From positions 23,340-87,339 of the forward strand of contig CADEDM010000001.1 in NCBI GenBank assembly GCA_902826065.1: a stretch of DNA of 64,000 nt, read 5' to 3'. Each line of letters begins with the position of its first letter. The first letter of the stretch is position 1. The position numbers were made by a program, and so were the translations under genes. The notes under the pieces are model-generated. The model was not told the origin of the DNA, made no database searches, and was given only the letters and a program-made list of their open reading frames with translations. Shown piece after piece: positions 4,346 to 52,882 of this stretch. Source of the stretch: an uncultured Acidobacteriota bacterium (GTDB lineage Bacteria > Acidobacteriota > Vicinamibacteria > Vicinamibacterales > UBA2999).

Positions 4346-4349
4346 GCCC

Positions 4350-33670: not shown

Positions 33671-33755
33671 CCCGGAGCGAAGGTTGGAAACCCGGGGAAG
33701 GGCGCGAGACGGCAGCGTAGTCGAGGTTAGGAAGAACACGTCGGGGCCGCGCCGA

Positions 33756-33773: not shown

Positions 33774-33914
33774 ACCTGAACTGTCGGCGATTTCTCACAC
33801 TCTCACGTATTTCCACATGTCGGCCGGCCCGACTGTGTCTGGATATTGAACACGACGGACCAAGCCTGAGTGTAAGAACGTAAGTCGCCGCACAAAGCTG
33901 TCGGCGAGGACCGT

Positions 33915-38252: not shown

Positions 38253-38834
38253 CTAGCGCGCCATCCGCCGGCGCATCACGAACGCGCCGAGGGCCGCGCC
38301 GACGACGAGGGCGATGGCGCCGACGACATAGAGGTTGCGCGTGGCGGCGTTCAGCAGCGGGTTGTCGAGCGCGTTCCACGACACGTGGTAGCTGGTGAGC
38401 AGCCAGCGGCCGTCCTGCTTCACCATCGTCGCCGTCCAGCGGTTCTCGAACTCGAACGAGGCGCCCAGCACGTTGAACTGGCCCACCGAGCGGCCGAACG
38501 ACACGCCGCTCGTGCCGCCGTTGTAGAGGAGGGTGAGGTCGTCGGGCGTGGGCGGCACCTTGTAGCCACCGAACGACTGCCGGCCCATGCGCTCGAAGAA
38601 GGTCCGCACGCCCTCGCGGCCGCGGTTCACCTCGCCGTTCTGCCAGGTCACGACGACGTCCGGGTGCAGGGCCGGGAGCACCTTCTCGATGTCCTGCGCG
38701 GTGATGGCGGCGAGCAGCTCCTGCCGCAACGCGCGCAGTTCCGCGTGGGCCGGATCTTCGGCCTGAGCGAAGGCGGGCACGGTCAGGGACAGTGTCAGAA
38801 TGCACGCGAATGCGGCCGCACGTGACAGGCTCAT
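38253..38834 (-). CDS. SnoaL/NTF2-like (DUF4440-like) secreted protein with a C-terminal TM anchor
   Basis: Start moved to the ATG at 38834 (MSLSRAAAFACILTLSLTVPAFAQ). The core (HPDVVVTWQNGEVNRGREGVRTFF...RWTATMVKQDGRWLLTSYHVS) is NTF2-like. The C-terminus LYVVGAIALVVGAALGAFVMRRR is a TM helix. Confidence 0.55.
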   Translation of the reverse strand: MSLSRAAAFACILTLSLTVPAFAQAEDPAHAELRALRQELLAAITAQDIEKVLPALHPDVVVTWQNGEVNRGREGVRTFFERMGRQSFGGYKVPPTPDDLTLLYNGGTSGVSFGRSVGQFNVLGASFEFENRWTATMVKQDGRWLLTSYHVSWNALDNPLLNAATRNLYVVGAIALVVGAALGAFVMRRRMAR

Positions 38835-38889
38835 GGGGTCTCCGATGATGGCGCGCGACGCGGCGACGCGCCTCGCAGCGGAGTAAGCA

Positions 38890-40014
38890 TTGCCGACCTC
38901 GGGCATCCAACTCAAGCATCGCTGGAGCGTCGGGCACAATTACCTCGCCGGCATCACCCTCGGCGACTGGTGGCGGCTGCTCGCGGCGAACCGCTTCGAC
39001 GTCGACGCGCCGTACTGGCATCGCGCGGCAGTGGTCACGGCCCTGAGCCTCGTGAACTCGGTCCACCGGTGGCGCGAGCGTCGCTGGGATGCCGACATCG
39101 CCGCGACGGCCCTGGCCGGCCCGCCGCTGTTCGTGCTGGGCCACTGGCGCAGCGGCACGACGCACCTGCACAACCTGTTCGCACAGGACGTCGACCAGTT
39201 CGCGTACGCCAACACCTATCAGGTCATCAACCCGCACACGTTCCTCGCCACTGAGGACCTCAACTCGCGACTGTTCGCGGGCCTCGTTCCGAAGACGCGG
39301 CCCATGGACAACATGGCGCTGAGCTTCCGGACCCCGCAGGAGGACGAGTTCGCGCCCTGCCTGATGACCGGCCTGTCACCGTACATGGGCGTGACCTTCC
39401 CCCGGCACGACGCCGCCTATGAACGCTTCCTGACCTTCCACGACGCCTCGCCCGAAGAAGTGGCGGCATGGAAAGCGGCGTTCCTGTGGTTCGTGAAGAA
39501 GCTGACGTTGAAGCATGGCCGTGCCATCGTGCTGAAGTCGCCCACGCACACTGCCCGCGTGCGCCTGCTGCTCGAGCTGTTTCCCGATGCGCGGTTCGTC
39601 CACGTGCACCGCCATCCGTACGAGGTCTTCCAGTCGTTCCGCCACTACTACGACACGGCCATGTGGTACACCTACCTGCAGCGGCCGGATCTCGAGGTCA
39701 TCGACGCGCGCATCCTCGCGCGCTACACCGAGATGCACGACGCTCTCTTCGCCGACCGCGCGCTCGTGCCCGAGGGCCGCTTCCACGAGCTGCGCTACGA
39801 GGACCTCGAGCGCGACCCGCTCGGCCAGATGCGCGAGACGTATGCGCGCCTCGGCCTCGCCGGCTTCGACCGGGCCGCCCCGCGGCTCACGGCGTACCTG
39901 GCGACCTTGCGCGACTACGAGAAGAACGCGTTCGCCCCGTTGGCGCCCGACGACCGGGCGCGCGTCGCCCAAGAGTGGCGACGCAGCTTCGAGGTCTGGG
40001 GCTACCGTGCCTGA
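38890..40014 (+). CDS. Sulfotransferase family protein
   Basis: PAPS 5'-phosphosulfate-binding loop LFVLGHWRSGTTHLHNL; 3'-PB-like IVLKSPTHTARVRLLLELFPDARFVHVHRHP. TTG start as in the track; the exact start is uncertain. Confidence 0.8.
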   Translation: MPTSGIQLKHRWSVGHNYLAGITLGDWWRLLAANRFDVDAPYWHRAAVVTALSLVNSVHRWRERRWDADIAATALAGPPLFVLGHWRSGTTHLHNLFAQDVDQFAYANTYQVINPHTFLATEDLNSRLFAGLVPKTRPMDNMALSFRTPQEDEFAPCLMTGLSPYMGVTFPRHDAAYERFLTFHDASPEEVAAWKAAFLWFVKKLTLKHGRAIVLKSPTHTARVRLLLELFPDARFVHVHRHPYEVFQSFRHYYDTAMWYTYLQRPDLEVIDARILARYTEMHDALFADRALVPEGRFHELRYEDLERDPLGQMRETYARLGLAGFDRAAPRLTAYLATLRDYEKNAFAPLAPDDRARVAQEWRRSFEVWGYRA

Positions 40015-41326
40015 TCGCGCGCCTGGCCCGCCAGGGGATCGGTGGTTCGGCCACTTGCGGGCGTTCCGCCACGACGTCCTCGGGTTGCTGACAGGCGCCG
40101 CGCGCGACCACGGCGACATCGTCCGTTTCCGCGTCGGCCCGCTCGTCACGCATCTGGTGAACCACCCGGAGCACGTGAGCCACGTCCTGCAGGCGCGGGC
40201 GCGCGTCTACGACAAGCAGACGCGCAGCACCGCCGCGATCGCGGCAATCTGTGCCGAGAGCCTGCTCACCGCCACCGGTCCCGCGTGGGAATCGCGTCGG
40301 CGGCTGATCCAGCCGTCGTTCCATCGCGCCCGCCTCGCTCATCTGGCCGGCACGATGACCGACTGCATCGACGCGCGGCTGGCCCGCTGGCGTCCGGGCA
40401 CCGTGCTCGACGTGGCCTCCGAGATGATGGGCGTGACGTTCGCCATCGTCGGGCGCACGGTGCTGGGAGCGGACGTCAGCGGCGACGCGCCGGCGGTCGA
40501 GTCCGAGGTCGGCCGTCTGCTGGCGCATGTCTTCGAGCGCTGGGGGCAGCCGCTGCCGGTGCCGCGCTGGCTGCCCACCCCGTCGAACCGGCGGTTCGCC
40601 CGCGACCTCGCCGCCGTCGACCGGGTGGTTGCGCGGATCATCGCGGAGCACCGCGCCGACGCCTCCCGCGACTCCCTGCTGTCGATGCTGATGGCCGCGC
40701 GCGACGCCGAGACCGGCGCCGCGTTCACCGACGCCGAGCTGCGCCACGAGACGCTCACCATGCTGCTGGCCGGCCACGAGACGACGGCGTCGGCCGTGGC
40801 GTGGACATTCGCCTTGCTGGCGCAGCATCCGGATGCAGAAGCGCGCGTCAGCGCCGAGGTGCGGTCGGTGCTCGGTGGACGGCGGCCCGCACTCGACGAC
40901 CTGGTGAAGCTCACCGCGACGACGTCAGCGATCCAGGAGGCGATGCGGCTCTACCCGCCGATCTGGGCGATCGAGCGGCGGGCCGTGCACGACGACGAGA
41001 TCGGCGGCTTCGCGATTCCGGCGGGCTCGAGCGTGATCGTCAGCCCGTTCGTGCTGCACCGCCATCCGGCGTTCTGGCGCGAGGCCGACCGCTTCGATCC
41101 AGCGCGATTCGACGGCGTGAAGGCGCCGCCGGCCTACCTGCCGTTCGGCGCCGGGCCGCGCTACTGCATCGGACACGAGTTCGCGATGCTCGAGGCGCGC
41201 CTGATCGTGGCGAGGGTGCTGCAGCGGTTCCGCCTGGAACTGGCGCCAGGGCACGTCGTGGCGCCGCTGCCCAGCCTGACGCTGCGCCTGCGCCACGGCC
41301 TGCGGATGGCGCCGCACGCCCACTAG
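40007..41326 (+). CDS. Cytochrome P450
   Basis: GTG at 40007, 8 nt before the sulfotransferase stop. AGHETTA (I-helix), EAMRLYPP (ExxR), FGAGPRYCIGHEFA (heme Cys loop). The first 140 codons of track ORF 39587-41326 are out of frame inside the sulfotransferase. Confidence 0.9.
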   Translation: MPDRAPGPPGDRWFGHLRAFRHDVLGLLTGAARDHGDIVRFRVGPLVTHLVNHPEHVSHVLQARARVYDKQTRSTAAIAAICAESLLTATGPAWESRRRLIQPSFHRARLAHLAGTMTDCIDARLARWRPGTVLDVASEMMGVTFAIVGRTVLGADVSGDAPAVESEVGRLLAHVFERWGQPLPVPRWLPTPSNRRFARDLAAVDRVVARIIAEHRADASRDSLLSMLMAARDAETGAAFTDAELRHETLTMLLAGHETTASAVAWTFALLAQHPDAEARVSAEVRSVLGGRRPALDDLVKLTATTSAIQEAMRLYPPIWAIERRAVHDDEIGGFAIPAGSSVIVSPFVLHRHPAFWREADRFDPARFDGVKAPPAYLPFGAGPRYCIGHEFAMLEARLIVARVLQRFRLELAPGHVVAPLPSLTLRLRHGLRMAPHAH

Positions 41327-41336
41327 CCCGTGCGCG

Positions 41337-42698
41337 TCACCACGCGAGCAGCGGGGCGACGACGAGCGACGCCGCCAACGCCCAGCGCGCCTGCCGATCC
41401 CATTGCGGCTCGAGGTGCAGATCCGCGGCGACGCGGGCCCGGCCGCGATTGATGGCCACGCCGGCCATCGTCGCGCCCGCGAGGGACGCGACACAGGCGA
41501 TGGGGACGAGCGCCCACGGGCGGACCAGCATCACCACCGGCAGCATCACCAGCGCGCCGCCCAGCACCAGCGGCAGCAGCGGCCGGCCCACGGCCGGCGC
41601 GCCCGGGCGGCTGGCGTGCACCACGCCGATCATCGCCATCTGCGCGACGAACGTCGCCACGTAGGGCACGAAGGTGTCGCGTTCGGCGATCTGACCGAGG
41701 AACAGCCACGCCAGCGCCGGCAGCGTCACGCCGGCGACCGCGTGGATGTCGTGTTCGCGATCGGCACCCTCGCTCGAGCGTGGGAACAGCCATGTGTAGA
41801 CAGCGAACAGGGCCACCGGCGGCACGAGCCACCACCAGCCGCGCAAGGCCCACACCAGATACCCGACCAGCGCTGCGCCAGCCAGCGCCGCATCACTCAG
41901 CGTCGTGCGCGATCGCGCCAGCGCCACGACCGCGACGCAGCTCACCGCGACCGCCAGGCGGCAGGTCAGCGCTGCGACGTCGAGATCGAGACTCTCGCGC
42001 AGGACGAGGAACGCGCCCACCGGCACCAGGACGTTGTCGAGGCCGTGCCATGCCACCGCCTCCAGCAGCGTGACCAGCAGCGCCATCGTGGTCGCGATGA
42101 GCACCGCGGCGGCCAGCGGCTGACGATGTGACAGCACCAGCGGCGCGAGCACGCTGAGGAAGGCGACGACGAAGAGCGCGCTGGATCCCTCCAGCGTCTT
42201 GCCGCCGCGGCGATCGTCGAAGAACGTCCGGCCGTACTGCTTGCCGACGAGCGCGGCCATGGCGTCGCCGAGCGTGAGCACGAGCGCCGGCACGAGGAAC
42301 AGCAGGCGATCGCCGGCGGCCAGCAGCCACAGGACGGCGACGCTCAAGGCAAAGTAGAAGTCGCCGCCCGACGCGCGGCCGACGTCGTGCATCGCGGCGC
42401 CGAGTTCCGTCCGGCGGGCGAAGAGGCGCAGGCCGACCAGGCCCGCAGTCATGCCGCCCGAGAGCGCCAGCACCGGCCAGGCGCGGTCGAACGTCCATGG
42501 CAGGATGCACGCCAGCAGGCCCATGCCGATGTGCACGGCCTTCCGCGTGTGCTCCGGGTCGGGCTTCGCTGCCAGCCGCCACGCCCACACGCCGGCGACC
42601 AGCACGCCCGTGAGCGCGGCCACCACCGCCACGCCGGTCCAGGGGCCGAACGGCACCGGCGCCGACAGCCAGGCCGGCGCTGTCGCTGCCGGCCTCAC
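41337..42698 (-). CDS. Polytopic membrane protein with a dolichol/phytol-kinase-like (CTP_transf_1 superfamily) N-terminal half
   Basis: GTG start in a GTGA overlap (42695-42698). The motif LGDAMAALVGKQYGR is typical of polyprenol kinases/CdsA relatives. About 12 TM helices. The extra C-terminal polytopic half has no family I recognise. Confidence 0.55.
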   Translation of the reverse strand: MRPAATAPAWLSAPVPFGPWTGVAVVAALTGVLVAGVWAWRLAAKPDPEHTRKAVHIGMGLLACILPWTFDRAWPVLALSGGMTAGLVGLRLFARRTELGAAMHDVGRASGGDFYFALSVAVLWLLAAGDRLLFLVPALVLTLGDAMAALVGKQYGRTFFDDRRGGKTLEGSSALFVVAFLSVLAPLVLSHRQPLAAAVLIATTMALLVTLLEAVAWHGLDNVLVPVGAFLVLRESLDLDVAALTCRLAVAVSCVAVVALARSRTTLSDAALAGAALVGYLVWALRGWWWLVPPVALFAVYTWLFPRSSEGADREHDIHAVAGVTLPALAWLFLGQIAERDTFVPYVATFVAQMAMIGVVHASRPGAPAVGRPLLPLVLGGALVMLPVVMLVRPWALVPIACVASLAGATMAGVAINRGRARVAADLHLEPQWDRQARWALAASLVVAPLLAW

Positions 42699-43816
42699 CG
42701 TCGCTCCTCGACGACGAACGCGCTGTAGAAGAACGCCTTGTCGGCGGCGTGCAGCCGCGCGGCCAGGTCCGTGAGCGGATGGAGGCGGTCGGCCATGTCG
42801 TCGGGGCGGCGGCGCGGCGCCAGCATGTTCCAGTAGGCCAGACGTCCGCCCGGCGCGAGCACGCGACTGAGGTGTTCGAGGCTGCGACGGGTCTCGTCGA
42901 GCGACATGTACTCGAAGATGTCGCTCAGGTTGGCGCCGTGCACCGTGCCGGCCTCGAGCGTGTCGAGCGCGCCGTGCAGATCGGCACGTCGCCACTCCAC
43001 GCGATCGACGTGGTCACGAATCGTCTCGAAGTGATCAGGGCGCAGCGCCAGCGGCAGTGCGGCGCCGTGGCGGCCGGTGAGGATCCAGTGCATGTAGGGA
43101 TTGGCGGCCGGGTCCAGCGCCGTCATCGCGTGACGCGCGCGCACGAGGATCCGGTCGGCCACCGACCCTTCGACGTGCGCGAAGAACTCGGGGTCGCGCC
43201 CCAGCCGCCCCATCACCGCGCGCGAAAAGAACACGCGGAACATGAGCCGCCACGCTGCCGTGTCCCAGGAGCGCGCGTAGAACGCCTCGCGCGACTCCGG
43301 TGGCCCGCCGGCCAACAGGCGCTCGACGGTCCTGCGCCCGTGCACGAGCGGCAGGACCCAGCGGCGGAACGTCGCGAAGTAGCGCTCGAACTTGCCGGCG
43401 CTGCCGATGCCGGCGTCGATGTCGGCACCGTGGCCGTCCCAGAACGTCCGCGCGTCGGCTGAGAGCTGGTTGCGGCAACGGGCGTAGAGCGCGCGCCGGT
43501 CGGCCGACGGCCGCGAGCCCACGAGCTGCAGCAGTTCCTCGTGGGTGAGCGCGCGATACGCGGCCAACCGCAGCTCGAGACACGCCAGCTGCGCCGGCGA
43601 CAGGTCCACGGCGACGACTCGTGCCGGGCGTCCGGTGAGCAGGGCCAGAGTGTTGTCGCCCGCAGATGCGATCGACACCAGCGTCTGACCCGGCTGCGGC
43701 GCCAGGGCCTCGACCAGGACATCGGCGTCCTCCCAGCACTGCGCGTAGCGAATGCCCGTGAAGTCGGCGCGGTCGGCCACTGGCGGCCGGGCCGTGCCTG
43801 CGACCTGCGAACTCAC
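42695..43816 (-). CDS. DUF3419 / BtaA-like protein (SAM-dependent 3-amino-3-carboxypropyl transferase family)
   Basis: GTG start in a GTGA overlap (43813-43816). IRYAQCWEDADVLVEALAPQPGQTLVSIASAGDNTLALL matches my recollection of the DUF3419 N-terminus and SAM-binding fold. C-terminus ...GGRLAYWNMLAPR. Confidence 0.65.
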   Translation of the reverse strand: MSSQVAGTARPPVADRADFTGIRYAQCWEDADVLVEALAPQPGQTLVSIASAGDNTLALLTGRPARVVAVDLSPAQLACLELRLAAYRALTHEELLQLVGSRPSADRRALYARCRNQLSADARTFWDGHGADIDAGIGSAGKFERYFATFRRWVLPLVHGRRTVERLLAGGPPESREAFYARSWDTAAWRLMFRVFFSRAVMGRLGRDPEFFAHVEGSVADRILVRARHAMTALDPAANPYMHWILTGRHGAALPLALRPDHFETIRDHVDRVEWRRADLHGALDTLEAGTVHGANLSDIFEYMSLDETRRSLEHLSRVLAPGGRLAYWNMLAPRRRPDDMADRLHPLTDLAARLHAADKAFFYSAFVVEERR

Positions 43817-46359
43817 GCCGCGCCGCCCGCGTCGAGCCGGCGCACGACGCCCGTCGAGCCATCGACGCGCAGAGAGTCGCCATCCTGCACCCACGCCATC
43901 AGCCCAGGCACCGACACGACGGCGGGCAGTCCGAGCTCGCGCGACACGATGGCGGTGTGCGACAGCACGCTGCCGCGCTCGACCACGACCGCAGACGCGG
44001 CGGGGAACAGCAGGATCCAGCCAGGATCGGTGCGCTCGGCGACGAGGATGTCGCCGGGCGTCAACGTGGCCTGCCGGGGATCACGAATGACGCGGGCGCG
44101 CCCCTCCACTATGCCCGGGCAACAGCCGATGCCCTGGCGCGTGTCGCCCGTCGTGTCGACGGGCGCGGCTGTCGCGGCCTGGAAGGTGTTGCCGATCCAC
44201 ACCGCGCCCCTGGTCTCGAACCGATCGGCCGGGGCGGGCGTCGCGCGATACGTGTCGTACTCGCGACGTCGTACCGCGGCGAGGTCAGCCAGGTTGCCGG
44301 TCGTGACCGTGCCCTCGACCACGCCCAGGACTTCGTCGACCTGCAGGTAGAACACGTCGTCGGCGGCCGCGAGCCGGCCCTCGGCGGCAAGGCGCCTCCC
44401 CGCCTCGACGACGATGCGGCGGACACGGCCGAAGACGCGCGTCCGCTCGAAGCGCAGGTTCTCGCGATGGCGGACGCGGGCGCGAGCCTGGCGCACCACC
44501 CAGCCAGCGATCACGCGGCGCAGCGGACGCCATCGCACGGCGGCGGTGAGGCGCTGTTCGGCCGCCACGCGCGACGCGCTTCCGCCCTGCATGCCGGCTG
44601 GCGGCGTGTTCGCCGGGTCGGGCTGTCCCAGGCCTCGTGCACGTTCGCGGTGCGCGAGGCCGCCGATGGCGCGGAACAACACCAGCGGATCGTCGGCAAG
44701 CGTCGGCGTCTCGAGCTTCAACTCGTCGAGGCAGCGATCGCTGAACTTCTCCAGGAACGCATGGTATTCCCGGGTGAACTCGTCGCCGCCGGTCGCGAGC
44801 GCCCGCCGGATCTCGTCGACCGTGCCGTGCTGCAGCACGGCGACGAGCGCCTCGTGCCCGGCGGCCAACCGGGCCAGCCGCTGCACACGCAGCGCCGGTT
44901 CGGCGCTGACGATGCCGCCCTCGGCGGCAATCAGGTCGTTCTGCAGCGTGCCGTCGGTGTCGCCGGCCCAGCGCGTGCAGATGGTGCGCAGCACGCCGTA
45001 GAAGATCATCGCGAAGAAGTCGTTGACGAGGGGCGCGTCCCAACGCGTCAGGAGCTGTCGCTCGAGCGCGCGGTAGTGGGCGACCAGCTCGTCGAGGCGC
45101 TGCGACGTCAGGTCGGTCCGCGTGCCGAGCGCGGCGTCGAGCCGGACGTAGAAGCGCTCGATCTGGCGCGGCAGGCGGACCAGGGCGGCGACGAGACCCG
45201 CGAGCGACCGCGCGAAGCGCAGGCCATCGAGCCAGCGTTCGCCACGCGTGGGCGGCGCCTCGCCGGCCAGCACCTCGTCGGGCATCGGCTCGCGGACGCC
45301 CATCATCTGCTCCATGAACCGGCGGTTCACGGAGAAGCCCGGGAGCATGGCGAGCACGCGATACCAGGAGATCAGGTTGTAGTACACGCGGCCGCGCACC
45401 GATCCGAGCATGTTGTCGAACGTGCTGCGACGGTCGTCGACGAGCGTACGCGGCACGGCGAGCAGCACGCAGAACTGGCGGTAGACCTCGGCGTAGACGC
45501 CGCGGGCGAACGAGAACGTCAGCGGCGTGGTGATGCCGCCGTAGCTCTCGGCGATGTTGCTGTTGTCCCAGATGCGGCGCGCGCCATCGGGATCGGGCAG
45601 CGCCGCGAGCGTCGTGATCGGCCGCGCCTGCAGCAGGTGCAGCCGTCCGCGTTCGATCGCCCACTCGATGTCCTGCGGACGCCCGGCGAACGTCGCGACC
45701 CGCTGGGCCAGGTCGGCGACGGCCGCTACCTGCGCGTCGGTCAGCGCTCGCGAGGTGCCGCCCTGACGAAGCGCCCGCACCTGCACGGCGCCGTCGCGGT
45801 CCACGGTGTAGCTGTCGGCATCCGCCTCGCCCGAGACGAGCGCGTCGCCCAGGCCCGGCACCGCGGCCACGACGGCCAGTGCGCGGCGGCCGCTCACCGG
45901 GTCTGACGAGAACGCCACGCCCGCCGCGTCGGGCGCGAGCATCCGCTGCACGATGACCGCCGGCGCCGGCGCCTCACCCCAGAAGCCGCGTTCGCGGCGG
46001 TAGGCCGCCACGCGCGGCGCCTCGACCGACCGCCACACGTCGGCGATGCGCGCCAGCACGTCGGCGGGCGCGACGTCGAGGTAGGTCTCGAACTGGCCGG
46101 CGAAGGAATGCCCGGCGCCGTCCTCTTCGGCAGCCGACGAACGGACGGCGACCCGGCTGCCCTCGGGCGTCAACCGTGCGAGCGCGGCGTCGACGTCCTT
46201 CGCGATGGCCGCGGTCCCTGCGGCAGCCGCGCCTGACGTCACGACGAACCACGCCGGCACATCGAAGCCGGCGGCCGCGAGTCGAGCCAGGGCCGCGGCC
46301 TTGCCGCCCACCTCCGACACCGCTGCGGCATCGCCTGGCCAGCGCAGGGCGTCGCTCAC
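43813..46359 (-). CDS. PEP-utilising enzyme: PPDK_N ATP-grasp + central domain + swivelling phospho-His domain (PEP synthase / rifampin-phosphotransferase-like)
   Basis: GTG start in a GTGA overlap (46356-46359). EVGGKAAALARLAAAGFDVPAWFVV...VAVRSSAAEEDGAGHSFAGQFETYL...PQDIEWAIERGRLHLLQARPIT. C-terminus TDPGWILLFPAASAVVVERGSVLSHTAIVSRELGLPAVV (catalytic His). 848 aa. Confidence 0.85.
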   Translation of the reverse strand: MSDALRWPGDAAAVSEVGGKAAALARLAAAGFDVPAWFVVTSGAAAAGTAAIAKDVDAALARLTPEGSRVAVRSSAAEEDGAGHSFAGQFETYLDVAPADVLARIADVWRSVEAPRVAAYRRERGFWGEAPAPAVIVQRMLAPDAAGVAFSSDPVSGRRALAVVAAVPGLGDALVSGEADADSYTVDRDGAVQVRALRQGGTSRALTDAQVAAVADLAQRVATFAGRPQDIEWAIERGRLHLLQARPITTLAALPDPDGARRIWDNSNIAESYGGITTPLTFSFARGVYAEVYRQFCVLLAVPRTLVDDRRSTFDNMLGSVRGRVYYNLISWYRVLAMLPGFSVNRRFMEQMMGVREPMPDEVLAGEAPPTRGERWLDGLRFARSLAGLVAALVRLPRQIERFYVRLDAALGTRTDLTSQRLDELVAHYRALERQLLTRWDAPLVNDFFAMIFYGVLRTICTRWAGDTDGTLQNDLIAAEGGIVSAEPALRVQRLARLAAGHEALVAVLQHGTVDEIRRALATGGDEFTREYHAFLEKFSDRCLDELKLETPTLADDPLVLFRAIGGLAHRERARGLGQPDPANTPPAGMQGGSASRVAAEQRLTAAVRWRPLRRVIAGWVVRQARARVRHRENLRFERTRVFGRVRRIVVEAGRRLAAEGRLAAADDVFYLQVDEVLGVVEGTVTTGNLADLAAVRRREYDTYRATPAPADRFETRGAVWIGNTFQAATAAPVDTTGDTRQGIGCCPGIVEGRARVIRDPRQATLTPGDILVAERTDPGWILLFPAASAVVVERGSVLSHTAIVSRELGLPAVVSVPGLMAWVQDGDSLRVDGSTGVVRRLDAGGAA

Positions 46360-47267
46360 CCGCGCCTCCACCAGGCCAGCGCCAGCGGCAGGATGCCGAC
46401 CGAGAGATACATCACCAGCGTCCAGACGCCGGCCATCACCTCGAACGTCTTCCCCGCGCCGGCCATGGGCCGGGCCACGAACCGCCGGCCCACGACGATG
46501 GCCACGGCGATAGTGACGGCGCCAAGCGCGGCCACCGTCGCGCCCACGCCGACGAGGCGTCCGGCCAGCGCGGCGCTGCCGGCGGCCAGGACCAGCGCGA
46601 CGACCCAGCTCGCGATCGCGCGCGGACGCCCCCAGGCCGCGGAGTAGGTCTCGACGCCGTGCTCCTCGTCCTCGGGCGCGCGCAGCTTGCGTCCCACCTC
46701 GACGACGACGCCGTTGAAGAAGCTCGCCGCCAGGAACCAGCCCAGGCCCTGCGGCGGCGTCGCTCCGGCCGGCACCCAGTCGCACGCGGTGGCGTAGAGG
46801 TCGATGAGCGGCACGACCAGCATGTGGGTCCACAGGTAGGTGAACGGCCGCGCCTTGAGCCAGTCGGCGACGAAGAACTCCTGCGAGAGCAGCGCCATGT
46901 AGGCCCACACCAGGGCCAGCACGACGAGCAGCCGCGCATCGAGCCACCAGGCCAGCGCGACCTGCACGGCCATCGCGGCCACGCCGAGACGCGCGAGTTC
47001 ACCGAGTGTGACGAGTCCACGCGGCACCGGGCGATAGGGCCGGAACTGCCGATCCTCGTCCGCGTCCTTGAACTCGTCGCTCACACGGAGCTGGAAGAAG
47101 AAGAGCAGTGCGCTCACGAACGCCACCACGGCGCCGCGCATCGACGGCCACGAGCCTCGCAGCAGCGCCGACAGCGCCACCGCCGAGGCGCTGAACGCGA
47201 GGATCAGCGGGCCGTGGCCGGCCAGCGGGAAGCGCTCGCGTTGGTAGGTCCACCAGCGCGTGGACAT
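46356..47267 (-). CDS. UbiA-family prenyltransferase
   Basis: 303 aa with about 8 TM helices. First Asp-rich motif RVSDEFKDADEDR. The second half contains the YxxxxxGRKLRAPEDE region. Confidence 0.8.
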   Translation of the reverse strand: MSTRWWTYQRERFPLAGHGPLILAFSASAVALSALLRGSWPSMRGAVVAFVSALLFFFQLRVSDEFKDADEDRQFRPYRPVPRGLVTLGELARLGVAAMAVQVALAWWLDARLLVVLALVWAYMALLSQEFFVADWLKARPFTYLWTHMLVVPLIDLYATACDWVPAGATPPQGLGWFLAASFFNGVVVEVGRKLRAPEDEEHGVETYSAAWGRPRAIASWVVALVLAAGSAALAGRLVGVGATVAALGAVTIAVAIVVGRRFVARPMAGAGKTFEVMAGVWTLVMYLSVGILPLALAWWRRG

Positions 47268-47269
47268 CG

Positions 47270-48559
47270 TCAGCGTGTCGTCGGCATCGGCGCGGTGCCG
47301 CGGGCCAGCGCCTCGTGCGCCTGCGCGAAGTGGCCGGCGATGAGGGCTGCGGTGATCGACAGCTCACCGGCGAGGGCCATCGCGCCCGCCACCTCCGCCA
47401 GCGCGTTTGCGTGTCCCGGGCCTGCCAGGCCCAGCCAGTCGAGGCACGCGCGCTGACTGGGTAGCGCGGTGCCGCCGCCCACGGTGCCGACGATGACATT
47501 GGGCAGCGTGACCGAGGCGTAGAGGTCGTCGCCGCGCACTTCGAATCGCGTCGTGCCGATGGCCGACTCGGCCACGCACGCCGCGTCCTGCCCGCAGGCG
47601 ATGTAGAGCGCGGCGAGGCAGTTGGCGAAGTGGCCCTGCACCCCGATGGTGCCGCTGAGCACGCCGCCCATGGCGCCCATCTGCCAGTAGCGCGCGAAGC
47701 CCTCCGGCGTCGTGTGCAGGCGCGCGGCCACGAGTGCGCCAGGAATCAGCGCCTCGGCCGTGACCTTGCGTCCGCGCACGTGCAGGAACGACTGGTGGCT
47801 GGCTTTCTTGTCGCCCGACATGTTGGCTTCGAGGAAGAAGTAGCGTGGCGACACCGGCGCGTGCGCGATCACGTGGCGGCAGACGGCGTCGGTGGCGAGC
47901 GTCACCATGTTCTGACCGGCGGCGTCGCCAGTAGTGAACTCGAGCACCATGTAGACCGAGCTGCCTTCGATGGTGCACTGCACGTCGGTCAGCTTGCCGT
48001 GACGGGTCGTCGACTCCGCGACCGCCCGCAGCGTGTCGACGTTCGACATCACCCAGCCCACGAAATGTCCGGCCTCGGCGATGGTGTGGAACGCGAACCC
48101 CGGCGCGCGCGACACGCCCGTGTTCAACACGGCCGCGGCACAACCGCCGGCTTCGGTGAGCGTGAGGGCGCCGCGGCTGTACGACGCCACCAGCGCGGCT
48201 TCCGTCGTCGCCAGCGGCACGTAGTAGTCGCCCCGGGCATGCACGCCGTTGACGCGCAGCGGCCCGGCCACGCCCACCGGCACCTTCACCGTGCCGACGA
48301 AGTGCTCGATGTGGTGGCGATAGCGCGAGGGGTCGTCGCTGGCGGCGCCGTCGAGCAGCGCCGCCCGGGCCGGTGCGGCGTCGCCGGGGAACAGGGCCCA
48401 GCGGGCGTCGATGGCCTCGGCATCGAGGGCGTCCCGGCCAGGCACCCGCTTCACCTCGCCGCCCGGCCGTGGGGCCAGGCGGGCCTTGAGCGCGTCGGGC
48501 GAGGCCTCGGTCAGCAGGGTCTTGAGCCAGTGGAGTGAGCGTCCCAGGTCGTAGGCCAC
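47270..48559 (-). CDS. Class I HMG-CoA reductase (soluble catalytic domain only)
   Basis: Start set at the GTG at 48559, 50 nt after the upstream stop. ATTEAALVASYSRG (Glu), DAAGQNM (Asp), GDKKASHQSF..VRGRKV (Lys), GTVGGGT, ALAGELSITAALIAGHFAQAH (His). All four catalytic residues are present. Confidence 0.85.
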   Translation of the reverse strand: MAYDLGRSLHWLKTLLTEASPDALKARLAPRPGGEVKRVPGRDALDAEAIDARWALFPGDAAPARAALLDGAASDDPSRYRHHIEHFVGTVKVPVGVAGPLRVNGVHARGDYYVPLATTEAALVASYSRGALTLTEAGGCAAAVLNTGVSRAPGFAFHTIAEAGHFVGWVMSNVDTLRAVAESTTRHGKLTDVQCTIEGSSVYMVLEFTTGDAAGQNMVTLATDAVCRHVIAHAPVSPRYFFLEANMSGDKKASHQSFLHVRGRKVTAEALIPGALVAARLHTTPEGFARYWQMGAMGGVLSGTIGVQGHFANCLAALYIACGQDAACVAESAIGTTRFEVRGDDLYASVTLPNVIVGTVGGGTALPSQRACLDWLGLAGPGHANALAEVAGAMALAGELSITAALIAGHFAQAHEALARGTAPMPTTR

Positions 48560-48609
48560 GCCGTGATCGTAACAGTCGCGTTGGCCGGCCGACGGCCGCC
48601 GCCGTGCGA

Positions 48610-50214
48610 TCAGGGGTGAGAAACGATGAATCGGCGCGTCGGCGCCGATGCCACGAGGCCGGGAAGGGCCGTGTAGTCGACCTTGGCGTTGTGACGGCGA
48701 TCCACCGGGATGGCCGGATACTCGCGCAGCTCGTGCAGGCGCGCCCACGCCAGCGTGGCCGCGACCGCCGCCAGATCCGGAGCGGCTCCGGGCGACGGTT
48801 GTACCAGCAGCAGACGCCGCCCGTCGTGCTGCGTGCATGCGGCCCGGGCGACCCCCGGCACATGCACGGCCGCGCATTCCACGGCGAAGGGATGGAGCAC
48901 GCCGGCGCCGTCGTCGATCACGGCGTTGCAGCGGCCGAGCAGCCACAGGCGGCCATCGAGGTCGAGCCGGCCGGCATCGCCGGTCCGATGCCAGACCGCG
49001 CTGTCGACCCGGAACTTGGTCTCCTCGTCGCCGCGTCCGCCCAGATAGCCGCGCAGGACGTGACCGCCGTGGACGACGATCTCGCCAGGTGTCCCGGCAC
49101 CGGCGCACCGCGCGGCGAAGGCCGCGCCAGACAAGGCGCCGATCGAGTCCGGGCGCCACGGGCCGGCCAGAATCCGCACCGCGATCTCGGGCACCGGCGT
49201 GCCGGTGACCAGCCCGCCGCCGGCCCGCATCCGCTCGCGATCCGCCGCCGAGATCGCCCGCCGCTCGATTTCGGCGATCGGCTCGGCCTCGGTCGAGCCG
49301 TAGACCGAGACGACCTCGGCGCCCGGGGCCGCCGCCGCGAGCCGATCGAGGAACGGCGGGAAGACCGGCGCGCCGCCGACGTGGATGGTGCGGAACGGCA
49401 GATGCGTCCGGGTCCGCTCGCTCTCGTCGACGAGGCGCCCGAGCAGCCCCGGCGAAGCGGCGGTCCGCATGACGTGATGCCGGCGAGCCTGCTCGACGAC
49501 GGGCGCCGGGGCGATCTGGCCGGGCGCGCGCAGGTCGGCGTCGGGAATCACGCTGGTGACCCCGGAGGCGAGGTTGGCGAGCACGAACACCGGCAGGGTC
49601 GAGAGATCGACGTCGCCCGGGCGCAGCTGCAGGCTGCGTTCGAGCACGTCGTGCTGGGCCAGCAGGAAGCCGTGGCTGCGCACGGCCACTTTCGGCACGC
49701 CGGTGCTGCCGCTGGTGAACGTCACGAGCGCCGGCGTGTCCGTGGTCACCGGCGCGAGCGTCTCGAGCGGCGTGACACGAGCGGCGCGTTGCCAGGAGGT
49801 CGCGCCCGGCAGCCAGCCATCGAGGCTCACCGCCCAGCGCGCGCGCCGGAACCCCGGGTGCAGCAGCCGCAGCAGGTGCGCCCTGCGGCTGCCGATGAAG
49901 CCGGCGATCGGCAGCGGCCCAAGCGCCGCGGCGACGTGCCCGCGGCTGGCCGAGGGCTCGGGCACGACGGCCGTCAGTCCCAGCCGGAACACCGCGATGA
50001 GCGCCGCGTACAACTCCAGCGACATCGGGTGCAGCACCACCGCCGCATCGCCGGCCCGTGCACCCAGCGACTGCAGCAGGGCCGCGCCGCGGGCCGACGC
50101 ACGGTCCAGTTCGGCGAACGTCGTGACGCGTGGCACGCCGCGCACGGTGTCGATGATGGCCGGCGCCTCCCCCTGACGGACGGCGCGATCGGCCAGGCGG
50201 GCCGCGATGTTCAC
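48610..50214 (-). CDS. AMP-dependent synthetase/ligase (acyl-CoA synthetase-like)
   Basis: ALVTFTSGSTGVPKVAV (P-loop), VYGSTEAEP, WHRTGDAG, PVDRRHNAKVDY (A10 Lys). Confidence 0.9.
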   Translation of the reverse strand: MNIAARLADRAVRQGEAPAIIDTVRGVPRVTTFAELDRASARGAALLQSLGARAGDAAVVLHPMSLELYAALIAVFRLGLTAVVPEPSASRGHVAAALGPLPIAGFIGSRRAHLLRLLHPGFRRARWAVSLDGWLPGATSWQRAARVTPLETLAPVTTDTPALVTFTSGSTGVPKVAVRSHGFLLAQHDVLERSLQLRPGDVDLSTLPVFVLANLASGVTSVIPDADLRAPGQIAPAPVVEQARRHHVMRTAASPGLLGRLVDESERTRTHLPFRTIHVGGAPVFPPFLDRLAAAAPGAEVVSVYGSTEAEPIAEIERRAISAADRERMRAGGGLVTGTPVPEIAVRILAGPWRPDSIGALSGAAFAARCAGAGTPGEIVVHGGHVLRGYLGGRGDEETKFRVDSAVWHRTGDAGRLDLDGRLWLLGRCNAVIDDGAGVLHPFAVECAAVHVPGVARAACTQHDGRRLLLVQPSPGAAPDLAAVAATLAWARLHELREYPAIPVDRRHNAKVDYTALPGLVASAPTRRFIVSHP

Positions 50215-50242
50215 GTGAAGTTCATTCTCGTCAATCCCCCGG

Positions 50243-50261
50243 TCTGAGCGAAACTCTCAGA
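50243..50261. promoter_or_regulatory. Perfect 6-bp inverted repeat TCTGAG-N7-CTCAGA in the 53-bp divergent intergenic region
   Basis: Read directly: ggTCTGAGcgaaactCTCAGAgcacacATG. It ends 6 nt before the carbamoyltransferase ATG at 50268. It could be an operator or a 5'-UTR hairpin. Confidence 0.3.
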
Positions 50262-50267
50262 GCACAC

Positions 50268-51755
50268 ATGATCGCGACACTGGGAACGGGCAACACGAAC
50301 GCGTCGGCCGCACTCGTCAGCGGTCCTGACGACCTCCGGGTCTGCGGCCAGGATCGGGCGACGCGCGTGAGGCGGGCCGGCGGCGGCAGCAGCGGCCTGC
50401 CCGACGACGCGCTGGATCTGCTGCTCGAGCGCGCCGGGCAGTCACGTGCCGCCATCAGCCGGTACGTCGTGGCCGAGGGCGACGGGACGCCGCTGGATGC
50501 GTCGCTCGAACGCGTCACCGACCATTTCGCCCACGCCTGCACCGCCTACCTGACGTCGCCCTCGACCAGTGCCGTCATCGTGGTGTGCGATCACGACGCG
50601 CCGGAGGTCAGTGTCTGGACCGGCGATGGCACCGCCGTGCGACCCGTGGAATGGCAGTGGCGCGGCACGGGCTTCGCGCGTGCCTACTCGCGCTGCGCCG
50701 CGGCCCTCGGGTTCACGGTGGCCGCCGCCGCCCAGGCCGAAGCGCTGGCGCGGCTGGCGCCCGACGCACGCGACGACGCCATCGAGCGCCTGCTGTGGCT
50801 GGAGGCCGATGGCCTGGTGATCGACCCGCAGCTCGAGGCGATCGTCGCGGATCGGGCCGGCGCGGGACGAGACATCGGCGCCTGGTCGGCGTGCGCGGCG
50901 GCGTTGCAGGCGCGCATGGGCGACGTGCTGCTCGACTTCCTGCGCCAGGTGCGCGCCGCCGTCGGACGCTCCGACCTCTGCCTCGGGGGCAGCCTGTTCC
51001 GGAATTCGTCGTTCAACACCCGGGTCCGCCAGTCGATGACGTTCTCCAGCGTCTTCGTGCCCGTCGATCCCGGCAACGCGGGACGGCCGGTTGGCGTGGC
51101 GCTGCAGGTCATCGGGGAGAGTCCGCGCCTGCGGTCACCGTTCCTCGGTCCGTCGTACTCACGCGAAGAGACCAAGCAGACCCTCGACAACTGCAAGCTC
51201 CACTACAGCCTCGAGTCGAGTGACGACGCGATCATGATCGCGGTGGATGCACTCCGGGACGGACGCCTGGTCGGCTGGTTCGACGGCGGCATGGAATGGG
51301 GCCCGCGTGCGCTCGGCGCCCGCTGCATCCTGGCCAATCCGCAGGCGCCGTACGTGCTCGACAACCTGAACCACTTCCTCAAGCGACGCGCCGCCTGGCG
51401 CGGCTATTCCCTCAGCGGTCTCGAAGAGACCGTCGCCGCCCACTTCGCGGGCCCGTCGTCATCGCCGTACATGGACAACGACTACCGGCCGCGCGAACCC
51501 GAGCGGCTGCGGGAGGTGCTGCCGTCACCGGCCGCCGCGGTCCGCGTCCAGACGGTCGGCCGCGACGCCGATCTGCCGCAGTTCCGGACGCTCCTCGAGG
51601 CGTTTGCCACCGTGTCCGGCCAGCCCTTCGTCGTCAACACGTCCTTCAACGGCTGGCACGAGCCCATCGTCTGCAGCCCGCGCGACGCCGTGCGCGTGTT
51701 CTACGGCACCGGCCTCGACGTGCTCGTGATCAACCAGTTCGTGCTGCGCAAGTGA
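50268..51755 (+). CDS. Carbamoyltransferase (NodU/CmcH family), short form with a degenerate N-terminal motif
   Basis: C-terminal half: GRLVGWFDGGMEWGPRALGARCILANP...PFVVNTSFNGWHEPIVCSPRDA. The N-terminus reads MIATLGTGNTNASAALV where the family usually has ..G....HDS.AAL. Confidence 0.75.
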   Translation: MIATLGTGNTNASAALVSGPDDLRVCGQDRATRVRRAGGGSSGLPDDALDLLLERAGQSRAAISRYVVAEGDGTPLDASLERVTDHFAHACTAYLTSPSTSAVIVVCDHDAPEVSVWTGDGTAVRPVEWQWRGTGFARAYSRCAAALGFTVAAAAQAEALARLAPDARDDAIERLLWLEADGLVIDPQLEAIVADRAGAGRDIGAWSACAAALQARMGDVLLDFLRQVRAAVGRSDLCLGGSLFRNSSFNTRVRQSMTFSSVFVPVDPGNAGRPVGVALQVIGESPRLRSPFLGPSYSREETKQTLDNCKLHYSLESSDDAIMIAVDALRDGRLVGWFDGGMEWGPRALGARCILANPQAPYVLDNLNHFLKRRAAWRGYSLSGLEETVAAHFAGPSSSPYMDNDYRPREPERLREVLPSPAAAVRVQTVGRDADLPQFRTLLEAFATVSGQPFVVNTSFNGWHEPIVCSPRDAVRVFYGTGLDVLVINQFVLRK

Positions 51756-51799
51756 CGCCGGGCGCGGATCGCGGTCGCCGCGGCGCCACCGTCATGGGG

Positions 51800-52795
51800 T
51801 CAGGGCAGCTGGCGTGAGAACACGGCGTAGCGACGGAACGTCGTGCCGTAGTGGCGGCTGATCTTCTGCGACAGGTTGGTGTCGAGCATCAGCGCGTGGA
51901 TCACCTGGCTCAGGCCGACGGCCTCGGCCGCGCGCTGGCCGCGCTCCACCAGCAGTCCGCCCAGGCCGACGCCGCCGTGCGCCGGATGCACCGCCAGCGT
52001 CTTCAGGATCGCCGTCACGGCGCGCCCGGTGCGGCGCATCTCCAGCAGGTCCGGCATCACGAACACGTAGCCCACCACCACGCCGCCGTTCTCGGCCAGC
52101 AACACCAGGCGAGGGTCGACGTGCGGCAGGACGGCGCCGTACTGCGCGTGGAAGTCGTCGCGCGCGATGGGCGTGTAGAGGAAGTTCTCGGCGAAGGCCG
52201 CGATCGAGACGTCGTAGAGCGCGTCGAGTTCGGCCTCGACGCGGCTCACGTCGATCGGGCGGACGCGGTAGCCGGCCGCGGCCAGCCGCTGGGCGCGCGC
52301 ATCCATCTCCGTCGACGGCGGAGGGATGGCCTCGACGAGGGCCGAGGTGTAGCTGGCGAGTGTCGCGAAGCCGGCCGTGCGGAAGTGGTCCGGCCAGTCG
52401 TCGGGCGTGTCGGGCTCGAGGAAGAACGGCGGCCGCGGGCCGCGCTCGACCACGAGCCGGTAGTCGTGCCACGTGCTGCCGTCGATCGGGCCGACGGCGG
52501 TCGACATGCCGTGCGCCGCCAGCTCATCGCACGCGTGCCGCAGTAAAGCCGCACCGGCCTCGACATCGGCGGCGGCATAGTGCCCGACCAGCCCGGCCGT
52601 CTGCCCTGGAAGTGCCGGCCCGTGCCGCCACCAGATCGACGCCCGCGCCACCGCCACGGCGTCGCGCACCACCAGCCAGTGATCGTCGGCCGCATCGCGC
52701 CGCCAGCGCCGATCGTCGAGCGGGCGCGAGGCGAGCGCAGGATGCACGGCGATGCCTTCGGGTGCACGGCCGTGGTTCGCACGGACTAGCTGCAT
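51800..52795 (-). CDS. GNAT-family N-acyltransferase (two-lobed)
   Basis: C-terminal lobe AILKTLAVHPAHGGVGLGGLLVERGQRAAEAVGL is the acetyl-CoA motif A (Q/RxxGxG/A-like). Confidence 0.6.
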   Translation of the reverse strand: MQLVRANHGRAPEGIAVHPALASRPLDDRRWRRDAADDHWLVVRDAVAVARASIWWRHGPALPGQTAGLVGHYAAADVEAGAALLRHACDELAAHGMSTAVGPIDGSTWHDYRLVVERGPRPPFFLEPDTPDDWPDHFRTAGFATLASYTSALVEAIPPPSTEMDARAQRLAAAGYRVRPIDVSRVEAELDALYDVSIAAFAENFLYTPIARDDFHAQYGAVLPHVDPRLVLLAENGGVVVGYVFVMPDLLEMRRTGRAVTAILKTLAVHPAHGGVGLGGLLVERGQRAAEAVGLSQVIHALMLDTNLSQKISRHYGTTFRRYAVFSRQLP

Positions 52796-52882
52796 GATGC
52801 GCTAGTGTCCCGGGTCGGGGGAGGCGGAGACAAGCCCCGCGCCGCCGACGCGCGATTGCCCGTCACGCGCCGCCGTGGTCTG

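Follow-up and report, generated by a model that had tools for sequence, protein, structure and literature searches.

The gene cluster considered here occupies about positions 38253-52795 of a 64,000-nucleotide stretch of DNA (the window, ~70% G+C) from an uncultured bacterium of the Vicinamibacterales (Acidobacteriota; contig CADEDM010000001.1 of assembly GCA_902826065.1). Its core consists of seven genes, which encode a DUF3419 protein of the BtaA superfamily, a homologue of 3-hydroxy-3-methylglutaryl-CoA (HMG-CoA) reductase (HMGR), a UbiA-superfamily transferase, a phosphotransferase resembling rifampin phosphotransferase (RPH), an ANL-family ligase, a tandem GNAT acyltransferase and a polytopic membrane protein. 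Described pathways share at most two or three of these seven components (the BtaA/BtaB, VTE5/VTE6/HPT, PigC/PigE and mevalonate systems one to three families each), no comparison at the equivalog or orthologue level succeeded, and the cluster is rated as lying outside known pathways, though each enzyme family is known. The original prediction, made from the sequence alone, could match the gene combination to no described pathway, and full-text searches of open-access papers and bioRxiv likewise found no published pathway with it; single components turn up, in connections foreign to this one, in the lipocone and chlorosphaerolactylate papers.

With the BtaA/BtaB system for the betaine lipid diacylglyceryltrimethylhomoserine (DGTS), the cluster has in common a member of the DUF3419 family (PF11899) and probably the transfer of a 3-amino-3-carboxypropyl group from S-adenosylmethionine (SAM) to oxygen. 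It differs in having no BtaB, and UbiA, RPH-like, HMGR, GNAT and ligase enzymes play no role in DGTS synthesis. Phytol is salvaged in plants and cyanobacteria by the phytol kinase VTE5, the phytyl-phosphate kinase VTE6 and the UbiA-family enzymes HPT and ChlG. The cluster resembles this system in its kinase-motif polytopic protein, second phosphotransferase and UbiA enzyme, which suggests the sequence alcohol, phosphate, diphosphate and alkyl transfer. Unlike in salvage, the membrane protein of the cluster matches no kinase HMM, the second kinase would be a soluble protein of the RPH/phosphoenolpyruvate (PEP)-synthase type and not DUF92, and the HMGR, DUF3419, GNAT and ligase are without counterpart there.

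The ATP-grasp, substrate and swivelling-histidine domains of PigC, RedH and RPH are found again in the RPH-like protein, and a reductase-aminotransferase fusion from a variant of the cluster resembles PigE with the domain order reversed. The cluster differs from the prodigiosin system in lacking pyrrole pathway genes, in its UbiA/DUF3419 context and in scores far below the equivalog cut-offs. The class-I HMGR of the mevalonate pathway and the cluster HMGR share the fold family, the four catalytic residues and a soluble catalytic domain; unlike the former, the latter falls in a separate clade, has an altered loop, lacks pathway neighbours and is interchangeable with a reductase resembling acyl-ACP reductase (AAR) and PigE. 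As a lead only, SidI (mevalonyl-CoA ligase) and SidF (GNAT transacylase) of fungal siderophore synthesis present the same combination of HMGR product, ligase and GNAT. The cluster departs from them in that its tandem GNAT (Acetyltransf_1) is not of the siderophore acyltransferase family and that it holds no hydroxyornithine or nonribosomal peptide synthetase (NRPS) genes.

The comparison of this locus with its relatives makes it probable that the genes constitute a conserved pathway of their own, for which an HMGR has been repurposed. With moderate confidence we further propose that this widely distributed, horizontally spread cluster makes a prenylated amphiphile not described so far, which would be a membrane lipid or a metabolite resembling one.

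Organization and Conservation of the Cluster

The seven core genes are located in the window as follows:

51800-52795, minus strand, tandem-repeat GNAT acyltransferase, 331 amino acids (aa); Pfam Acetyltransf_1 and Foldseek

48610-50214, minus strand, ANL-family adenylating ligase, acyl-CoA synthetase-like, 534 aa; PF00501

47270-48559, minus strand, soluble class-I enzyme of the HMGR family, 429 aa; PF00368

46356-47267, minus strand, UbiA-superfamily membrane prenyl/alkyl transferase, 303 aa; PF01040

43813-46359, minus strand, RPH/PigC-type PEP-synthase-like phosphotransferase, 848 aa; PPDK_N and PEP-utilizers

42695-43816, minus strand, DUF3419 (BtaA-superfamily) SAM-dependent transferase, 373 aa; PF11899

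41337-42698, minus strand, polytopic membrane protein with polyprenol-kinase/CdsA-like motifs, 453 aa; motifs

Six of these open reading frames (ORFs), spanning 41337-50214, had been described as a packed array with junctions of 50, 2, -4, -4 and -4 nucleotides (nt). Read directly from the sequence, this arrangement was reproduced exactly: 50 nt separate the ligase stop TGA (48610-48612) from the HMGR GTG start (48559), a gap of 2 nt lies between the HMGR TGA and the UbiA ATG, and three GTGA start/stop overlaps follow at 46356-46359, 43813-43816 and 42695-42698. Five Pfam calls of the original prediction (AMP-binding, HMG-CoA_red, UbiA, PPDK_N with PEP-utilizers, and DUF3419) were borne out as well. 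Its description of an orphan six-gene operon has to be given up, as a seventh gene, that of the tandem GNAT, belongs to the set and the set recurs across more than a dozen phyla. A promoter and terminator scan gave nothing exceeding shuffled expectation.

A scan with one genome per species found this DUF3419 subfamily encoded in at least 588 species-representative genomes. From the DUF3419-encoding loci (at least 588), 80 were taken with 10-kb flanks, and counts of gene co-occurrence were made on the 44 loci with enough flanking sequence. In the 80 loci, tblastn and an unbiased all-against-all clustering of ORFs agreed on exactly seven families widely conserved around DUF3419, which are the six genes of the original prediction and the GNAT of ~330 aa. 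All seven are present in 28 of the 44 well-flanked loci, and the median junction across the cluster loci is -4 nt. The UbiA and RPH-like genes co-occur in 38/38 loci. GNAT and ligase stand together in 33 of 35 GNAT-bearing loci, the other two having a GNAT without ligase; the GNAT gene completes the conserved core as its seventh member, and its translation is as a rule coupled to that of the ligase. The pairings suggest that the core falls into modules, GNAT with ligase, HMGR with UbiA and RPH-like kinase, and DUF3419 with the membrane protein. Most loci have the order hmgr-ubiA-rph-duf3419-tm-gnat-lig (tm denoting the membrane protein), and a minority, the window among them, gnat-lig-hmgr-ubiA-rph-duf3419-tm. 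Gene content and conservation are given directly by the data, as are the conserved catalytic motifs and the mutually exclusive replacements described below. Chance adjacency is rejected on the conservation across phyla, mostly with -4 nt junctions. That the genes act as one functional unit, as had been predicted, agrees with their being kept together across phyla, and the proposed search for co-occurrence found DUF3419, UbiA, HMGR and the RPH-like gene together in dozens of genomes.

The species scan placed the subfamily in Acidobacteriota, Planctomycetota, Verrucomicrobiota, Cyanobacteria, Chloroflexota and Alpha-, Beta- and Gammaproteobacteria, and further in Desulfobacterota, Nitrospirota, Bacteroidota, Lentisphaerota, Armatimonadota and Gemmatimonadota. 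Complete clusters occur in the cultured strains Alkalilimnicola ehrlichii AK92 and Desulfobulbus rhabdoformis DSM 8777, and in the cultured Firmicute (Bacillota) Brevibacillus laterosporus B9, whose G+C content is 41% and whose cluster lies on the minus strand of NZ_CP011076.1 at about 463.1-474.5 kb. Two cultured cyanobacteria carry partial clusters of five genes, Microcoleus sp. FACHB-1515 without ligase and GNAT and Phormidium tenue FACHB-886 without ligase and HMGR. Roseinatronobacter sp. S2 carries the cluster on a 137-kb plasmid; in the gene table of this plasmid (PLSDB) four cluster proteins are named by family or domain only and two as "hypothetical protein", and the HMGR gene, which crosses the origin of the plasmid record, is absent from the table. 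We regard the cluster as horizontally spread. The closest genome among the loci compared is a Vicinamibacterales metagenome-assembled genome (L004), with 67-79% identity over the seven core proteins. On one planctomycete contig (L084:3763-4287 and 7071-9906), two ORFs without Pfam match, an AAA_21 gene and a DUF4276 gene fall between UbiA, the RPH-like gene and DUF3419, which indicates that the cluster tolerates insertions.

The Verrucomicrobial Variant and the Reductase

A variant of the cluster was found in six verrucomicrobial loci (L008, L017, L029, L039, L040 and L044; e.g., L017:1080-13710). Neither HMGR nor membrane protein is encoded in it, and the order is UbiA - RPH-like - X - Y - SnoaL - DUF3419 - GNAT - ligase, from which L040 and L044 retain only X, Y, the SnoaL-like gene and DUF3419. 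Protein X is an 838-aa fusion with an N-terminal class-III aminotransferase; its C-terminal domain matches the long-chain acyl-ACP reductase 6jzu (6e-11) and 4ppm (9e-14), the latter deposited as an 861-aa "aminotransferase", which we take to be PigE. The best NCBIfam match of the whole of X is PigE too, far below the family cut-off. Protein Y is a second RPH-like phosphotransferase.

In the well-flanked loci the HMGR (32 loci) and X (5 loci) are mutually exclusive and never occur together, while the membrane protein (35 loci) and Y (5 loci) are nearly so, with both present in 1. The simplest reading is that X replaces the HMGR and Y the membrane protein functionally, the first two both handling an acyl thioester and the last two both phosphorylating. 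These replacements provide the strongest evidence that the HMGR homologue is a pathway-specific thioester reductase and that the membrane protein is a phosphotransferase.

The reductase itself scores 353.1 bits on PF00368 (cut-off 27) and stays below the equivalog cut-off of NCBIfam TIGR00533 (308.6 versus 441.8 bits). Its closest PDB entry is 6hr7, an archaeal class-I HMGR, at 40% identity, and the catalytic residues E85, K251, D325 and H416 align with those of 6hr7 and 8ecg (human E559, K691, D767 and H866). This tetrad is invariant in 45-46 of 46 cluster-linked sequences, and R590 is invariant or nearly so. All 46 sequences carry the clade-specific changes S684->E and DAMGMN->DA(A/S)GQN, and NAH is replaced by QGH almost throughout (43 of the 46 have the Q, all 46 the G and 44 the H). 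The cis-loop serine, DAMGMN and NAH are HMG-binding features of the human enzyme. Judged by these residues, the cluster HMGR appears to be a distinct class-I clade, and we infer that it serves as the thioester reductase of the pathway.

Within +/-10 kb, the 80 loci show no conserved family of the mevalonate pathway besides the HMGR, and no other gene of that pathway was found among the window ORFs scanned. The HMGR also sits inside the cluster in cyanobacteria, which to our knowledge make isoprenoids only via the methylerythritol phosphate (MEP) pathway. The original prediction had named as a possible objection that the HMGR might be merely the housekeeping mevalonate enzyme of the organism. 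The lack of conserved mevalonate neighbours, the presence in cyanobacterial clusters and on a plasmid, and the mutual exclusion with the PigE-like thioester reductase/aminotransferase suggest that it is not; for the missing neighbours, the changed substrate loop, the PigE-like replacement and the plasmid copy, the housekeeping reading was rejected as the main explanation.

The Membrane Protein

The sixth gene of the array encodes a protein with about ten hydrophobic segments. The kinase-type motif that had been quoted for it, GDAMAALVGKQYGR, is present at residues 144-157. The motifs RKxxH, (A/G)DxxAAxxGxxxG, K(S/T)xEGS and E...G(L/F/Q)DN are invariant in 24 homologues, as are the residues E49, R52, K53, H56, D145, G152, G156, K167, E170, G171, S172, E213, D221 and N222. 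We take these motifs to be the signature of CTP-dependent polyprenol kinases (dolichol and phytol kinase, COG0170) and CdsA, and in an hhalign comparison with E. coli CdsA they are in register with the CdsA signature, but with a P of only 0.06, which is no significant link. In five Chloroflexota loci (L013, L043, L064, L067 and L079) the protein has 235-272 aa and consists of the motif-bearing N-terminal domain only; this domain of ~235 aa is the core of the protein, and the C-terminal membrane domain of ~200 aa is dispensable.

The protein gave no match in Pfam (E up to 10), NCBIfam (E up to 0.01) or PDB sequences; a phmmer and profile search of the PDB and a tblastn search of plasmids gave no significant link to a named family. 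A Foldseek search of the PDB with the two-domain AlphaFold2 (AF2) model (predicted local distance difference test, pLDDT, 89) found no match at E < 0.1. A weak DUF92 match (E 0.01) was obtained for three of the 24 homologues. The expected assignment by a kinase-type HMM was thus not obtained, and the polyprenol-kinase-like call stands on the motifs and a KO-derived name, with no HMM match for the window protein. It is a reasonable lead, not demonstrated. In JGI annotation the KO-based name of the homologues is "phytol kinase", and at NCBI they are named "hypothetical protein".

The Other Core Enzymes

Among the models in the June 2026 release of NCBIfam, none is specific to one of the seven core proteins. 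The RPH-like protein (PPDK_N 170.1 bits, PEP-utilizers 77.7 bits) is composed of an ATP-grasp domain, a central substrate domain and a swivelling phospho-histidine domain, and Rph_4th is recorded on its homologues. The phospho-carrier His801, within SH(T/S)AIV, never varies, and conservation of the central domain is strong. Its closest solved structures, 5fbs and 5hv1, were deposited as "phosphoenolpyruvate synthase"; we believe them to be Listeria rifampin phosphotransferase. The best NCBIfam match, NF004881, is reached with 732 bits against a cut-off of 883.

In the UbiA protein (PF01040, 41.2 bits versus a cut-off of 34.2), about 6 hydrophobic segments were recognized together with the motifs DEFKDxxxD (64-72), RPYRPVPRG (76-84) and PxDEExGVxTY (198-208). 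The two acidic Mg/diphosphate-binding motifs are conserved in 53 sequences as DEFKDxxxD with RPxRPxPxG, and PxDEExGVxTY, and no NCBIfam equivalog or characterised subfamily was reached. The ligase (PF00501, 142.7 bits) has its best NCBIfam match in PRK09274 (323 bits, cut-off 478), with 184 bits on the OleC-like model. Its motifs TSGSTGVPK (167-175) and YGSTEA (305-310) and K511 are in place, and the A3 and A10 motifs are conserved.

For the GNAT protein, Pfam recognizes Acetyltransf_1 at residues 226-309 only. The AF2 model (pLDDT 91) shows a tandem-GNAT fold, in which the acyl-CoA site falls to the C-terminal repeat, and the top Foldseek matches, all with probability 1.0, are MAB_4324, a GlcN N-acetyltransferase, MshD and the clavulanate tandem GNAT (entries 7q3a, 5kf1, 2c27/1ozp and 2wpw; TM-scores 0.46-0.61). 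These relatives acylate amines of small molecules.

The Proposed Pathway

We infer every substrate, the order of the steps and the product, and the particular order given here is itself doubtful. The DUF3419 enzyme would transfer the 3-amino-3-carboxypropyl group of SAM to an acceptor oxygen by BtaA-type chemistry. The tandem GNAT would then N-acylate the alpha-amino group so introduced, in the manner of tandem GNATs of the MshD type, and the ANL ligase would convert a carboxylate, most economically that on the same moiety, to a CoA thioester. The pairing of GNAT and ligase, contiguous with DUF3419 in the variant, suggests that they act on an amine and a carboxylate. Acylating the nitrogen before the carboxyl is activated is a classic guard against cyclisation of amino acids, as in arginine biosynthesis. 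The cluster contains no carrier protein, which fits CoA thioesters.

The HMGR-clade enzyme may next carry out a four-electron reduction of the thioester to a primary alcohol; in the variant, the PigE-like fusion would reduce the thioester to the aldehyde and transaminate it to an amine. One or more hydroxyls would be phosphorylated by the RPH-like enzyme, with ATP and via its phospho-histidine, and by the polyprenol-kinase-like membrane protein, in place of which the second RPH-like enzyme would act in the variant. Transfer of a prenyl or alkyl chain by the UbiA enzyme would make the product membrane-bound, and in the lineage of the window it may be decorated by a P450, a sulfotransferase and a carbamoyltransferase.

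The original prediction had ordered the steps otherwise, from an acid through its CoA ester, alcohol, phosphate and diphosphate to a donor for the UbiA enzyme. This order would fit the HMGR version of the cluster equally well and the amine-forming variant less well. The adjacency of ligase and HMGR, on which its idea of activation followed by reduction was founded, belongs to the minority gene order only, and the gene consistently found beside that of the ligase encodes the GNAT. Its chemistry as such, namely acid to alcohol, prenylation and phosphorylation, and an aminocarboxypropyl head group, remains a plausible proposal. A more specific proposal, speculative and improbable, is a new, glycerol-free class of polar lipid with the four-carbon aminocarboxypropyl unit of SAM as its backbone, made by abundant bacteria of soil and water in many phyla. 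Such a sphingoid-like "homoserinol" lipid would bear an O-linked prenyl or alkyl chain, would be N-acylated, and would have its carboxylate reduced by the HMGR homologue to a (phospho)alcohol.

Several points weigh against the pathway as drawn. The order of the steps was built from family chemistry and gene pairing alone, and the kinase assignment of the membrane protein is without statistical support. The HMGR keeps all catalytic residues and R590 and is compatible with plain reduction of HMG-CoA to mevalonate. Several cyanobacterial loci have an HMGR without a ligase within 10 kb, and some loci have a ligase without an HMGR or the PigE-like fusion; the coupling of ligase and reductase would accordingly not be obligatory or would be looser than proposed, unless the partners are encoded elsewhere in the genome. 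Finally, the amine expected in the variant fits poorly with a scheme running from alcohol through phosphate and diphosphate to UbiA.

If the proposal is true, a seven-enzyme pathway in hundreds of bacterial species makes an undescribed class of compound, with hosts including the dominant soil and freshwater groups Acidobacteriota, Planctomycetota, Verrucomicrobiota and Chloroflexota, and filamentous cyanobacteria. It would provide the first known HMGR homologue used outside mevalonate metabolism, and annotation that credits these genomes with a mevalonate pathway on the strength of the cluster HMGR would be mistaken. The complete clusters in cultured strains make the pathway accessible to direct testing.

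Accessory Genes and the Nature of the Product

Four further genes accompany the core in the window:

50268-51755, plus strand, NodU-like carbamoyltransferase; Pfam Carbam_trans_C and part of Carbam_trans_N

40007-41326, plus strand, cytochrome P450, a recurrent accessory gene; PF00067

38890-40014, plus strand, sulfotransferase of the accessory module; Sulfotransfer_3

38253-38939, minus strand, SnoaL-like/DUF4440 protein (NTF2 fold), a recurrent accessory gene; DUF4440/SnoaL_2

The P450 gene (PF00067, 283 bits; likely start GTG at 40007) converges on that of the membrane protein, its stop at 41326 lying 10 nt away. In NCBIfam the P450 comes closest to two sesquiterpene oxygenases, albaflavenone monooxygenase and pentalenene oxygenase, without reaching either cut-off. 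Homologues stand beside or inside the cluster in seven loci from three phyla (L004, L021, L034, L037, L047, L059 and L071). The sulfotransferase gene (Sulfotransfer_3, 3.9e-37) overlaps the P450 start and is translationally coupled to it, and the pair adjoins the cluster also in L004 (Acidobacteriota), L037 (Gammaproteobacteria) and L059 (Verrucomicrobiota). SnoaL/DUF4440 homologues are located directly upstream of DUF3419 in eight verrucomicrobial loci (55-61% identity) and, as in the window, beside the cluster in L004 (78% identity). On a planctomycete contig, the seven core genes are succeeded immediately, and on their own strand, by a P450 gene and a PAP2_3 gene (lipid phosphate phosphatase/phosphotransferase-like). 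The P450, the sulfotransferase, the SnoaL-like protein and, on that one contig, PAP2_3 point to a tailored hydrophobic product.

The carbamoyltransferase gene sits on the opposite strand between GNAT and ligase, two genes that usually overlap, and its start is 53 nt from that of the ligase. The protein matches Carbam_trans_C (1.2e-41), part of Carbam_trans_N and NodU (1.6e-18), and its first ~208 residues have no Pfam match. None of the 80 related loci, L004 included, has this insertion, which was found at the same place in independently assembled metagenome contigs; it is a lineage-specific insertion and possibly supplies a tailoring enzyme.

The accessory genes bear on the strongest rival of a membrane lipid, namely a specialised metabolite that is soluble or secreted, for instance a terpenoid or a prodiginine-style condensation product, which we consider possible, if rather unlikely. 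The UbiA enzyme would then be a membrane terpene cyclase or small-molecule prenyltransferase, the RPH-like enzyme would phosphorylate a carbonyl for condensation as PigC does, and the P450, the sulfotransferase and the carbamoyltransferase would have the usual role of tailoring enzymes in natural-product synthesis. Tailoring genes, patchy distribution and a plasmid copy are typical of secondary metabolism, the sesquiterpene oxygenases are the closest relatives of the P450, and a polyketide synthase (PKS) and an NRPS-like gene are found elsewhere in the window. The PigE-like fusion of the variant fits this explanation, as do the scores of the RPH-like protein on the PigC and RedH models (287-327 bits); yet these scores, 287 against a cut-off of 1300 for PigC and 327 against 1350 for RedH, are far below the family cut-offs, like that of the fusion on PigE. 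The equivalog cut-offs of Rph (278 of 999 bits) and PEP synthase are not reached either. No pyrrole-forming genes are conserved nearby in the 80 loci, the seven core proteins include two that are polytopic and reside in the membrane, and the core is unusually conserved for secondary metabolism, with the DUF3419 protein 57-68% identical between phyla.

The DUF3419 Protein and Betaine Lipids

The DUF3419 protein matches PF11899 over its full length with 242.5 bits, and its SAM motif IASAGDN (residues 49-55) is conserved. It has thousands of relatives, the best 120 of which are 63-88% identical, and identity across phyla ranges over 57-88%; an exact-sequence look-up of the window protein gave no match. 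On its sequence it appears to be a highly conserved, distinct subfamily and the universal core of the cluster family. NCBIfam does not separate it from BtaA, and canonical BtaA also matches no NCBIfam model. The homologues carry the JGI/KO name [quoted passage not shown] and the NCBI name "DUF3419 family protein".

The designation "BtaA-like" held at the level of the Pfam family, where the N-terminal WED and the SAM-binding motifs are common to both proteins. It did not hold beyond that, as identity to canonical BtaA is 22-28% and the loci have no BtaB. The identity is 22% over 279 aa to the canonical Chondrinema BtaA, which adjoins a BtaB-like class I methyltransferase, and 28% to the Shinella and Rhizobium homologues. 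These figures bear on an explanation by betaine-lipid-type remodelling, in which the protein would be a true BtaA that converts diacylglycerol to diacylglyceryl-homoserine under phosphate limitation while the other genes supply or modify the lipid. Family membership and the KO names agree with it, and so does the occurrence of the DUF3419 and membrane-protein genes as a pair standing alone in some genomes. In Phormidium tenue FACHB-886 (L035:4041-6272), the gene immediately upstream of the cluster, with which it shares the strand, encodes the alkaline phosphatase PhoX; this arrangement occurs in 1 of about 80 loci, and a link to phosphate starvation was dropped as general evidence. Neither BtaB, which stands next to canonical BtaA, nor any other methyltransferase family is conserved in the 80 loci, and a diacylglycerol-based lipid leaves the constant UbiA, RPH-like and HMGR partners unexplained. 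We regard betaine-lipid remodelling as improbable.

Metagenome counts of btaA (K13622, a KO entry cited in environmental studies) probably include this non-BtaA subfamily. If the prenylated amphiphile is indeed the product, the routine KO-based naming as BtaA would mislead for these genomes.

The last explanation, an ordinary mevalonate HMGR or a salvage of isoprenoid alcohols by phytol kinase and UbiA feeding a prenylquinone- or chlorophyll-type product among otherwise unrelated neighbours, can draw on the intact tetrad and R590, the bona fide archaeal HMGR as closest structure and phytol-kinase-like motifs near a UbiA enzyme, and is very improbable in view of the joint conservation across phyla, which argues against chance neighbours, the lack of conserved HMG-CoA synthase, GHMP kinase, decarboxylase and isomerase families nearby in the 80 loci, the cluster-borne HMGR of cyanobacteria (known to use the MEP pathway only) and of a plasmid, its score below the TIGR00533 equivalog cut-off, its invariant or nearly invariant pocket changes and its replacement by a PigE-like reductase.

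Surroundings of the Cluster in the Window

The plus strand at 52805-56324 carries an alpha/beta hydrolase gene, divergent from that of the GNAT, and after it an ABC-2 transporter pair. The window has this synteny in common with L004 and not with other phyla. On the other side of the cluster, two minus-strand ORFs encode fibronectin-III proteins, one of 707 aa (33915-36038) with weak Ig-like matches to "tip attachment protein J" and one of 305 aa (32843-33760) with a weak PPC match. They are accompanied by an overlapping plus-strand ORF (34651-35712) with good codon statistics and no Pfam match, which makes the gene calls in 32843-36038 uncertain.

The PKS mentioned above is a type-I protein of 1892 aa (KS-AT-KR-DH-...-ACP) encoded on the plus strand at 15373-21051. 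The NRPS-like protein of 1556 aa (22686-27356, plus strand) begins with a formyltransferase and further comprises an adenylation domain, split by a luciferase-like monooxygenase, and a carrier domain. An alpha/beta hydrolase gene (21841-22689) lies between the PKS and NRPS-like genes. Positions 1078-14490 hold an exopolysaccharide-type set composed of a PMT_2-like glycosyltransferase, a Wzx-like flippase, two GT2 genes, a Wzz/GNVR chain-length protein, a ParA-like ATPase and an initiating sugar transferase (Bac_transf).

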